From sequence record KJ997912.1: a stretch of DNA of 5,386 bases. The stretch is one strand, 5' to 3'. Shown in pieces: positions 965 to 5,386 of this stretch. A program made the translations under genes and the position numbers. The notes under the pieces were generated by a model that worked only from the letters and a program-made list of their open reading frames with translations, was not told the DNA's origin and did not search any database. Origin of the DNA: Enterobacteria phage MED1. Within the stretch, counting starts at the first letter, position 1. Every line of letters begins with the position of its first letter.

Positions 965-969
965 TTATA

Positions 970-983
970 GGGGCTTCGGCCCC
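970..983 (+). terminator. J-F intergenic stem-loop GGGGC-UUCG-GCCCC (leaky terminator TJ / mRNA stabilising hairpin)
   Basis: Perfect 5-bp GC stem 970-974/979-983 closing a UUCG tetraloop 975-978; no following U-tract, consistent with an inefficient terminator; the gene F ribosome-binding site GAGG lies just downstream at 990-993. Confidence 0.55.
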
Positions 984-1000
984 TTACTTGAGGATAAATT

Positions 1001-2930: not shown

Positions 2931-3917
2931 ATGTTTGGTGCTATTGCTGGCGGTATTGCTTCCGCTCTTGCTGGCGGCGCCATGTCTAAATTGTTTGGAG
3001 GCGGTCAAAAAGCCGCCTCCGGTGGCATTCAAGGTGATGTGCTTGCTACCGATAACAATACTGTAGGCATGGGTGACGCTGGTATTAAATCTGCCATTCA
3101 AGGCTCTAATGTTCCTAACCCTGATGAGGCCGCCCCTAATTTTGTTTCTGGTGCTATGGCTAAAGCTGGTAAAGGGCTTCTTGAAGGTACGTTGCAGGCT
3201 GGCACTTCTGCCGTTTCTGATAAGTTTCTTGATTTGGTTGGACTTGGTGGCAAGTCTGCCGCTGATAAAGGAAAGGATACTCGTGATTATCTTGCTGCTG
3301 CATTTCCTGAGCTTAACGCTTGGGAGCGTGCTGGTGCTGGTGCTTCCTCTGCTGGTATGGTTGACGCCGGATTTGAGAATCAAAAAGAGCTTACTAAAAT
3401 GCAACTGGACAATCAGAAAGAGATTGCCGAGATGCAAAATGAAACTCAAAAGGAGATTGCTGGCATTCAGTCGGCGACTTCCCGTCAGAATACGAAAGAC
3501 CAAGTATATGCACAAAATGAGATGCTTGCTTATCAACAAAAGGAGTCTACTGCTCGCGTTGCGTCTATTATGGAAAACACCAATCTTTCCAAGCAACAGC
3601 AGGTTTCTGAGATTATGCGCCAGATGCTTATACAGGCTCAAACGGCTGGCCAGTATTTTACTAACGACCAAATCAAAGAGATGACTCGCAAGGTTAGCGC
3701 TGAAGTTGACTTGGTTCATCAACAGACGCAGAATCAGCGGTATGGTTCTTCTCATATTGGTGCTACTGCTAAGGATATTTCTAATGTCGTCACTGATGCT
3801 GCTTCTGGTGTGGTTGATATTTTTCATGGTATTGATAAAGCTGTTGCCGACACTTGGAACAATTTCTGGAAAGACGGTAAAGCTGATGGCATTGGCTCTA
3901 ATTTGTCTAGGAAGTAA
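2931..3917 (+). CDS. H: Minor spike / DNA pilot protein H (328 aa)
   Basis: ORF 2931..3917; RBS GAGGTGA at 2921-2927 overlaps the G stop; Gly-rich N-terminus ([25 protein letters not shown]) and Q/E/K-rich central coiled-coil region typical of phiX174 H. Confidence 0.95.
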
Positions 3918-3955: not shown

Positions 3956-3980
3956 GCCTCCAAACTTTGGAGGCTTTTTT
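3956..3980 (+). terminator. Rho-independent terminator TH: GCCTCCAAA/TTTGGAGGC hairpin followed by a T6 run, immediately before the A start codon
   Basis: Inverted repeat 3956-3964 / 3966-3974, then TTTTTT at 3975-3980; the 3-prime arm contains GGAGG (3969-3973), which also serves as the Shine-Dalgarno sequence of gene A (ATG 3981). Confidence 0.6.
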
Positions 3981-5386
3981 ATGGTTCGTTCGTATTACCC
4001 TTCTGAATGTCACGCTGATTATTTTGACTTTGAGCGTATCGAGGCTCTTAAACCTGCTATCGAGGCCTGTGGCATTTCTACTCTTTCCCAATCTCCGATG
4101 CTTGCCTTCCATAAGCAGATGGATAACCGCATCAAGCTCCTTGAAGAGATTTTGTCATTTCGTATGCAGGGCGTTGAGTTCGATAATGGTGATATGTATG
4201 TCGACGGTCATAAGGCTGCTTCTGATGTTCGTGATGAGTTTGTGTCTGTTACTGAAAAGTTAATGGATGAATTGGCACAATGTTACAACGTGCTCCCCCA
4301 ACTTGATATTAATAACACTATAGACCACCGCCCCGAAGGGGACGAAAAATGGTTTTTAGAGAACGAGAAGACGGTTACGCAGTTTTGCCGTAAGCTGGCT
4401 GCTGAACGCCCTCTTAAGGATATTCGAGATGAGTATAATTACCCCAAAAAGAAAGGTATTAAGGATGAGTGTTCAAGATTGTTGGAGGCCTCCACTATGA
4501 AATCGCGTAGAGGCTTTACTATTCAACGTTTGATGAATGCAATGCGTCAGGCTCACGCTGATGGCTGGTTTATCGTTTTTGACACTCTTACGCTGGCTGA
4601 TGACCGCTTAGAGGCGTTTTATGATAATCCCAATGCTTTGCGTGACTATTTTCGTGATATTGGTCGTATGGTTCTTGCTGCCGAGGGTCGTAAAGCTAAT
4701 GACTCACACGCCGACTGCTATCAGTATTTTTGTGTGCCTGAGTATGGTTCAGCTAATGGCCGTCTTCATTTCCATGCGGTGCATTTTATGCGGACACTTC
4801 CTACAGGTAGCGTTGACCCTAATTTTGGTCGTCGGGTACGCAATCGCCGCCAGTTAAATAGCTTGCAAAACACGTGGCCTTATGGTTACAGTATGCCTAT
4901 CGCAGTTCGCTACACGCAGGACGCTTTTTCACGTTCTGGATGGTTGTGGCCTGTTGATGCTAAAGGTGAGCCGCTTAAAGCTACCAGTTACATGGCTGTT
5001 GGCTTCTATGTGGCTAAATACGTTAACAAAAAGTCAGATATGGACCTTGCCGCTAAAGGTCTAGGAGCTAAAGAATGGAACAACTCACTAAAAACCAAGC
5101 TGTCGCTACTTCCCAAGAAATTATTCAGAATCCGAATGAGCCGCAACTTCGGGATGAAAATGCTCACAATGACCAACCTGTCAATGGAATGCTTAATCCA
5201 GCTTACCAAGCTGGGTTACGACGCGACGCCGTTCAACCAGATATTGAAGCAGAACGCAAAAAGAGAGATGAGATTGAGGCTGGCAAAAGTTACTGTAGCC
5301 GACGTTTTGGCGGCGCAACCTGTGACGACAAATCTGCTCAAATTTATGCGCGCTTCGATAAAAATGATTGGCGTGTCCAACCTGCA
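3981..5386 (+). CDS. A: Replication initiator protein A (HUH rolling-circle endonuclease; 513 aa in total), N-terminal about 468 codons; the ORF runs off the window end and finishes at 1..136
   Basis: ATG 3981 preceded by GGAGG; no in-frame stop to position 5386; HUH motif HFHAVH encoded at 4767-4784; catalytic tyrosine pair in VGFYVAKYVNKK (Tyr codons 5007-5009 and 5019-5021, residues 343 and 347). Confidence 0.95.
   Translation, partial: MVRSYYPSECHADYFDFERIEALKPAIEACGISTLSQSPMLAFHKQMDNRIKLLEEILSFRMQGVEFDNGDMYVDGHKAASDVRDEFVSVTEKLMDELAQCYNVLPQLDINNTIDHRPEGDEKWFLENEKTVTQFCRKLAAERPLKDIRDEYNYPKKKGIKDECSRLLEASTMKSRRGFTIQRLMNAMRQAHADGWFIVFDTLTLADDRLEAFYDNPNALRDYFRDIGRMVLAAEGRKANDSHADCYQYFCVPEYGSANGRLHFHAVHFMRTLPTGSVDPNFGRRVRNRRQLNSLQNTWPYGYSMPIAVRYTQDAFSRSGWLWPVDAKGEPLKATSYMAVGFYVAKYVNKKSDMDLAAKGLGAKEWNNSLKTKLSLLPKKLFRIRMSRNFGMKMLTMTNLSMECLIQLTKLGYDATPFNQILKQNAKREMRLRLAKVTVADVLAAQPVTTNLLKFMRASIKMIGVSNL
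4299..4328 (+). other. Viral-strand origin of replication (30-nt A-protein recognition sequence); nick site between G4305 and A4306
   Basis: CAACTTGATATTAATAACACTATAGACCAC at 4299-4328 is the canonical phiX174 ori, located inside gene A at the same coordinates as in the reference. Confidence 0.85.
4497..5386 (+). CDS. A*: A* protein (341 aa in total): internal in-frame translation initiation within gene A; continues to 1..136
   Basis: In-frame ATG at 4497 preceded by GGAGG at 4484-4488 (8-nt spacing); corresponds to the known A* start of phiX174 (MKSRRGF...). Confidence 0.75.
   Translation, partial: MKSRRGFTIQRLMNAMRQAHADGWFIVFDTLTLADDRLEAFYDNPNALRDYFRDIGRMVLAAEGRKANDSHADCYQYFCVPEYGSANGRLHFHAVHFMRTLPTGSVDPNFGRRVRNRRQLNSLQNTWPYGYSMPIAVRYTQDAFSRSGWLWPVDAKGEPLKATSYMAVGFYVAKYVNKKSDMDLAAKGLGAKEWNNSLKTKLSLLPKKLFRIRMSRNFGMKMLTMTNLSMECLIQLTKLGYDATPFNQILKQNAKREMRLRLAKVTVADVLAAQPVTTNLLKFMRASIKMIGVSNL
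4850..4900 (+). promoter_or_regulatory. Approximate location of promoter pB (inside gene A, upstream of B)
   Basis: Weak sigma70-like elements only (TTGCAA at 4863-4868, then TTACAG/TACAGT around 4886-4892); placed mainly from knowledge that pB lies about 190 nt upstream of B in phiX174. Exact hexamers uncertain. Confidence 0.3.
5075..5386 (+). CDS. B: Internal scaffolding protein B (120 aa in total), embedded in gene A in a different frame; continues at 1..51
   Basis: ATG 5075 with AGGAG at 5063-5067; translation MEQLTKNQAVATSQE... with the conserved C-terminus after the wrap; the N-terminal third carries several substitutions versus the reference as recalled. Confidence 0.9.
   Translation, partial: MEQLTKNQAVATSQEIIQNPNEPQLRDENAHNDQPVNGMLNPAYQAGLRRDAVQPDIEAERKKRDEIEAGKSYCSRRFGGATCDDKSAQIYARFDKNDWRVQPA

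Follow-up and report, generated by a model that had tools for sequence, protein, structure and literature searches.

The closest described counterpart of the element reported here is T_J, the terminator between genes J and F of phiX174. According to Logel & Jaschke (10.1101/2020.03.05.979765), this phage has a Rho-independent terminator in each of its J-F, F-G, G-H and H-A spacers, and none of the four reaches 100% efficiency. In that study T_J was found by three prediction tools, and T_J, T_F and T_G each stopped 20-40% of the transcriptional current as judged from the drop in RNA-seq signal, although step-downs in RNA-seq or qPCR alone cannot separate termination from processing or differential decay. 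The efficiency of T_J lay in the lowest quartile among E. coli terminators, and measured terminator strength was uncorrelated with folding energy (10.1101/2020.03.05.979765). Zhao et al. (2012, PMC3335065) reported T_J read-through of 68% at 37 C (32% termination) and 34% at 42 C, and scored the hairpin at -9.5, a strength exceeded among the four only by T_H. Transcripts ending at T_J were the most stable in the same work, which cites Hayashi, Hayashi & Muller (1983) for faster decay of the shorter upstream D-J mRNAs once the T_J structure is broken, in both phiX174 and G4. Both studies assign T_J to the Rho-independent terminators and refer for this to Hayashi 1981 and 1989 (10.1101/2020.03.05.979765; PMC3335065).

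Selection experiments have also touched the element. In 50-day phiX174 chemostats, C987T appeared in three of four cultures and A986G in one of four (Brown et al. 2013, PMC3606162). C987T lengthens the tail of T_J, which those authors treat as a T-tail (PMC3606162). Among 16 viable phiX-like genomes made by generative design, no mutation was seen in Terminator J or the origin, and every other regulatory element was mutated in at least one of them (preprint 10.1101/2025.09.12.675911). Each virion requires 60 copies each of J and F, 12 of H and 240 of D.

We analysed the J-F spacer of Enterobacteria phage MED1 within its complete sequence record (KJ997912.1, 5386 nt; hereafter the window). The window is a phiX174-type microvirus with the phiX174 gene layout, collinear with NC_001422 and 96.0% identical to it (215 substitutions, no indels). 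Substitution density was uneven, with 3 differences in positions 1-300 and 25 in 301-600. The closest GenBank phage record was Salmonella phage PJNS001 at 96.6%, with none higher, and the closest match to the F protein came from the wild isolate ID34 (98.6%). Positions 969-1009, which include the hairpin, the tail, the Shine-Dalgarno (SD) sequence and the start of F, were identical in the window and NC_001422. The hairpin is thus T_J, the long-known leaky terminator and mRNA-stabilising stem-loop of phiX174-type phages, and results obtained with phiX174 carry over to the window by orthology because the sequence is the same. The efficiency, Rho-independence and stabilising effect of T_J would on these grounds be expected to hold in the window genome, 96% identical overall. 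We put the probability that T_J acts here as the first of four leaky intrinsic terminators, with its hairpin also serving as a 3' mRNA stabiliser, at about 0.9.

The hairpin and its flanking genes

The features of the region are as follows.

390-848: gene D, open reading frame with the coordinates of NC_001422
568-843: gene E, open reading frame with the coordinates of NC_001422
848-964, + strand: gene J, DNA-binding core protein, coordinates as for J of NC_001422, stop TAA at 962-964
967-968, + strand: differences from phiX174 nearest to the element, GC in phiX174 and AT in the window
969-984, + strand: T_J hairpin A-GGGGC-UUCG-GCCCC-U, 6-bp stem of 969-974 with 979-984
975-978, + strand: UUCG tetraloop of the C(UUCG)G type, closing pair C974-G979
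984-989, + strand: weak, interrupted U-tract UUACUU, terminator tail
986-991, + strand: ACTTGA, match to the origin core (origin CAACTTGATATT at 4299, motif at 4301)
990-994, + strand: SD of F, GAGGA, starting 5 nt past the stem
1001-2284, + strand: gene F, major capsid protein, first gene 3' of the terminator, ATG at 1001, coordinates as in NC_001422

The first-pass annotation, made from the letters alone, had placed GGGGC-UUCG-GCCCC at 970-983, between the J stop and the F ribosome-binding site. Both the letters and the placement are exact (TAA 962-964, GAGGA 990-994, ATG 1001), and A969-U984 adds a sixth pair to the five G-C pairs of the stem. The hairpin starts 4 nt past the J stop and ends 5 nt ahead of the F SD, within a spacer of 36 nt. 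The annotation also held that the element appears conserved despite substitutions around 965-969. Conservation against phiX174 was borne out, whilst the substituted stretch proved narrower, with only 967-968 differing. These two positions read AT in ID34 and NC7 and TC in NC56 and PJNS001, and the changes spare the core stem, shifting the local minimum free energy (MFE) by only 0.6 kcal/mol.

The proposed folding check of 960-1000 returned the predicted hairpin with an MFE of -12.3 kcal/mol. The isolated 16-nt hairpin gave -11.2 kcal/mol, and the structure persisted in a 201-nt context, in the MFE fold as well as in the centroid. Its G+C-rich stem and 4-nt loop lie within the bounds for an intrinsic-terminator stem-loop (stem of at least 5 bp, loop of 3-8 nt), and the UUCG loop on a C-G closing pair makes it a UNCG tetraloop. 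An Rfam scan of the whole window gave no match near 965-1000 at E values up to 10. The hairpin also folded with DNA parameters (-6.7 kcal/mol, z = -2.2). The reverse strand folded as well (-11.3 kcal/mol), as is inevitable for a perfect inverted repeat; a role on the antisense strand was set aside, such a fold being expected of any perfect inverted repeat and no sign of function being seen there.

The folding energy of the 41-nt piece was modest (z = -1.68), with 13 of 200 shuffles folding equally well. Folding energy alone therefore proves nothing for this hairpin, and it is the one observation that would suit a chance inverted repeat without function. Hairpins with five G/C-only pairs and a loop of 4 nt are nevertheless rare by chance: of 1000 dinucleotide-shuffled genomes only 7% contained one at all, the mean being 0.076 per 5386 nt. 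From this figure the chance of such a hairpin falling inside the 36-nt J-F spacer is about 3e-4. The compensatory changes between clades with F proteins only 44-73% identical to that of the window (see below) and the experimental data on phiX174 T_J (10.1101/2020.03.05.979765; PMC3335065) likewise speak against chance, which we regard as excluded. Only one further inverted repeat with five G/C-only pairs exists in the genome, inside gene H at 3000-3017 (both strands; GGCGG TCAAAAAG CCGCC, 8-nt loop). With 0.45 such hairpins expected per genome, that repeat is probably due to chance.

Conservation among relatives and loss in laboratory lines

J-F spacers were collected from IMG/VR loci found via the F protein, from GenBank phage records (phiX174, ID34, NC7, NC56, PJNS001, NC10, phiK, Lilleven, Lilleen and Vibrio phage PG19) and from a few metagenome contigs. 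The 42 spacers reduced to 27 distinct over 63 nt, and 19 representatives were aligned. A metagenome scan with an F-protein profile added little diversity, its 16 loci being nearly all phiX174 copies that probably represent carry-over of sequencing control; the variety was supplied by IMG/VR and the GenBank records. One metagenome contig of 327,964 nt (FUFK010037421.1) held many tandem copies of the phiX174 genome with about 97% F identity to the window, which looks like misassembled sequencing-control phiX.

All 19 spacers contained a G+C-rich hairpin, 1-8 nt past the J stop and 3-9 nt ahead of the F SD. They span the phiX, alpha3 and G4 clades, and with them all three genera of the Bullavirinae, as well as the Vibrio microvirus PG19, whose F protein is the one at 44% identity. 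None of the wild isolates sampled had lost the hairpin from this spacer. The stem-loops by clade were as follows.

phiX clade, ID62-like and ID18-like: GGGGC-UUCG-GCCCC
alpha3/phiK-like: GGGCC-UUCG-GGCCC
ID52/NC10: GGGGGC-UACG-GCCCCC
G4/ID11-like: GUGGGAC-CGCG-GUCCCAC
Lilleen: stem as in G4/ID11-like, loop CACG
L016: GGGGG-CUUGU-CCCCC
Vibrio phage PG19 (44% F identity): AAAGGGGC-GUUA-GCCCCUUU, then U

In the alignment, 99% of cells paired; column shuffles gave 91%, and sliding the 3' partners never gave more than 74%. The fourth stem pair was GC in 13 spacers, CG in 4 and AU in 2, the clades also differed in the pairs that extend the stem, and none of 500 shuffles reached the observed covariation score. 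RNAalifold returned the same five pairs as its consensus. Pairing has been kept across relatives with compensatory changes. The covariation support is real but thin, as just one of the five core pairs varies.

The loop was of the UNCG type (UUCG or UACG) in 14 of the 19 distinct spacers. Loops of this kind confer special stability on RNA, not on DNA. Their dominance thus argues that the transcript, rather than the single-stranded viral DNA, is the target of selection. The persistence of a structure with a compensatory pair and RNA-specific loops across the Bullavirinae and in a distant Vibrio microvirus is of some small value in its own right.

Several phiX174 GenBank records are only 5359 nt long and have F starting at 974. 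Alignment revealed a 27-nt deletion, equivalent to 965-991 of the window, which takes out exactly the hairpin and its tail and leaves TTTTAAGGATAAATTATG, so that the J stop TAA runs directly into the F SD. Fifteen GenBank records matched the deletion-junction query in full, including AF176028, AF299310, AF299307, HM775309, AF176030 and AF299300. Isolate and strain names among them were SC1, SCS1, CG, CGGhiMhi, CMMhiC and strain beta2. Judging by these names and the accession series, the records appear to be laboratory-evolved phiX174 lines. CMMhi (AF299306) is intact and CMMhiC (AF299307) carries the deletion; if the latter descends from the former, as the names suggest, the deletion has probably arisen more than once. 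In the literature searched we found no published description of it, and it is documented here from sequences alone.

The existence of 15 viable, apparently laboratory-evolved records without the element indicates that T_J is not essential and tunes expression. It persists in the wild, and under certain laboratory conditions its loss is tolerated. Loss at high temperature would plausibly restore expression of F, G and H, as termination at T_J doubles at 42 C. The probably repeated loss of the element by the same 27-nt deletion in laboratory lines marks T_J as a tuning device, again a point of some small value.

The deletion lines and the conserved loops also bear on whether the inverted repeat serves the single-stranded viral genome as DNA, lying beside a cleavage site of the A/A* protein or forming a structure for packaging or complementary-strand synthesis. 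The viral strand is indeed single-stranded and the hairpin folds as DNA. The ACTTGA at 986-991 matches the origin core, and this J-F copy is a reported extra-origin cleavage site of the A/A* protein (PMC3606162). The viral-strand origin itself, CAACTTGATATTAATAAC, is intact in the window at 4299-4328. However, ACTTGA is absent from the spacers of the alpha3 and G4 clades, where the hairpin is kept, the conserved UUCG and UACG loops stabilise RNA and not DNA, and complementary-strand synthesis has its known signals elsewhere, in the F-G and H-A spacers (PMC3606162). Deletion mutants, moreover, replicate and package. We consider a function of the hairpin at the DNA level very improbable. The two chemostat substitutions, A986G and C987T, both fall inside the ACTTGA of the T_J tail.

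An effect on translation of F, in which the hairpin would hold the ribosome-binding site in single-stranded form, shielded from structure further 5' or from ribosomes completing J, and so set the rate at which F is translated, is somewhat easier to entertain but still doubtful. The SD of F is nearly invariant in the aligned spacers, with AAGGA as its equivalent in relatives, and in 19 of 19 it follows the hairpin by 3-9 nt. The layout of hairpin, SD and start codon also recurs in unrelated phages, in the contexts of the 18-mer GGGCTTCGGCCCCTTACT and in T4-like spacers. Such closeness, however, follows from a 36-nt spacer that holds both a terminator and a ribosome-binding site, and the viable deletion mutants have the SD directly after the J stop. 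A translation switch by pairing of the 3' arm (CCUU) with the SD (GAGG) is possible on paper in phiX and T4-type spacers. It was dropped on finding it sterically impossible in alpha3-type spacers (CCCUUUAAGG) and hence not conserved.

The tail: termination or decay barrier

The tail of T_J is poor by the usual measures. Directly after the stem, UUACUUGA has 4 U in 8, short of the 5 or more expected of a terminator, and only 3 in 8 when the A-U pair is counted to the stem and the tail is read as TACTTGAG. A consensus terminator scan did not call T_J, its tail TTACTTGA having only 4 T in 8. The d'Aubenton-Carafa-style tail score was 1.48 with a negative discriminant, which was negative in nearly all relatives too. 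Judged from the letters of the spacer, T_J would be classed as a sub-threshold terminator; the missed call reflects a weak terminator, not an absent one, and the leakiness of T_J fits the weak U-tract UUACUU. The first-pass annotation had recorded no U-tract. The low U count and the silent scan bear that description out in the main, though the tail is U-rich and is counted as a T-tail in the literature. T_H, in the H-A spacer at 3956-3974 (+ strand), has an 8-bp stem and a 3-nt loop followed by TTTTTT, and was the only one of the four phiX terminators called by the consensus scan.

A weak tail also invites the reading that the chief role of the hairpin is to halt mRNA decay or to mark a processing end-point rather than to release polymerase; 3' exonucleases would trim full-length RNA back to it, whilst the F-G-H portion decays faster. 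UNCG loops, conserved here, are typical of exonuclease-resistant hairpins. The failure of the U-tract in consensus tests points the same way, as do the lack of correlation between terminator strength and folding energy (10.1101/2020.03.05.979765) and the high stability of T_J-ended transcripts, with destabilisation upon hairpin disruption (PMC3335065). Against it stand the placing of T_J among Rho-independent terminators in the literature, with reference to Hayashi 1981 and 1989, and the increase of termination with temperature, as a kinetic terminator would show. Parallel selection of C987T, which improves the tail (PMC3606162), is likewise at odds with a barrier alone. In Vibrio phage PG19, moreover, the same place is occupied by a full canonical terminator with an 8-bp stem and UUUU. 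The two roles are not exclusive, and a decay barrier as the sole role is disfavoured; as the main explanation of the hairpin it is unlikely, if worth weighing. A target for RNase III was also considered and rejected, as a 6-bp stem is established to be far too short.

Leaky termination at T_J, with stabilisation of the released ends, remains our preferred reading. Host RNA polymerase starting from P_B or P_D would transcribe D-E-J, and the nascent RNA would fold into the hairpin just ahead of the interrupted U-rich tail. A minority of polymerases (about 20-40% at 37 C, more at 42 C) would release there, a minority because the tail is poor. The remainder would continue into F, G and H, so that mRNA abundance drops in steps between D, the scaffold gene, and the genes for capsid and spike. 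Where a transcript has been terminated, the hairpin would be its 3' end and block 3'-exonucleolytic decay, making the short D-J mRNAs the most persistent of the phage messages. The original proposal of a leaky terminator and/or 3' stabiliser thus matches the phiX174 literature on the identical T_J. Its further suggestion that the element sets the J:F expression ratio was loosely worded, as J and F are both needed at 60 copies per virion. T_J is better described as the first step of a D > F > G > H gradient, parting the transcripts of D (240 copies) and J from those of F-G-H. In this way T_J helps to grade mRNA, with D and J high and F, G and H successively lower, in a phage without regulatory proteins, and phiX174 modelling and refactoring studies include it because it helps to set these graded levels.

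Look-alike cassettes and known systems

A sensitive search with 962-1003 also matched T4-type phages. The 30.7/30.6 spacer of RB32 (CAGGGGCTTCGGCCCCTTACTGAGGAAAACATTATG; L050, 301-335) and the rIIB/denB.1 spacer of IME339 (TAAGGGCTTCGGCCCCTTACTGAGGAAAATTATG; L051, 301-335) are about 92% identical over 35 nt to 969-1003 of the window, with the 18-mer followed by GAGGA and ATG. The same 18-mer was found in 50 varied IMG/VR stretches, and an SD and start codon followed within 6 nt in 23 of 51 IMG/VR occurrences. Many occurrences have, further 5', a GTAA that takes in the stop codon and pairs with TTAC. Recurrence of the 18-mer is largely explained by this pairing of the stop TAA with the TTA of the tail. 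CUUCGG intercistronic hairpins were reportedly described in T4 by Tuerk and colleagues in 1988. The likeness of the T4-type and phiX-type cassettes is probably convergence on one efficient design and not homology. Horizontal transfer of the cassette between the two types found no support, the 18-mer being widespread in unrelated contigs. That nearly the same cassette occurs in unrelated phages is a finding of small value.

It is conceivable, but a long shot, that hairpin, tail and SD form a reusable cassette of about 35 nt, shared or converged on by coliphages, which would jointly provide partial termination, 3' protection and presentation of the ribosome-binding site, and which would also overlap the A/A* motif in phiX-type genomes. 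Such a combined role, if true, would be one not yet described for T_J.

Taken as a leaky terminator, T_J compares with four described systems. With phiX174 T_J the window element shares its genome position, its flanking genes and an identical 969-1009, and near the element it differs only in the GC to AT change at 967-968. Nothing new is therefore to be learnt from the window itself, T_J being unchanged from phiX174, where its behaviour has been measured several times. In common with the C(UUCG)G intercistronic hairpins of T4-type phages it has the layout of stop, hairpin, SD and start, whilst those genomes are unrelated to that of the window (Caudoviricetes against Microviridae). With 3' stem-loop stabilisers (Abe & Aiba 1996, as cited in PMC3335065) it shares a stable hairpin ending the longest-lived transcripts, whose disruption leads to faster decay. 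It differs from them in that the 60-80% of transcripts reading through carry the hairpin internally. Like canonical E. coli intrinsic terminators (a G+C hairpin with a U-tract of 7-9 nt, as in T_H of the window), T_J has a G+C-rich stem of 5-6 bp, a short loop, a site past a stop codon and, as reported for phiX174, Rho-independent release. It departs from that class in its short and interrupted U-tract, and T_H was called by the scan whilst T_J was not.
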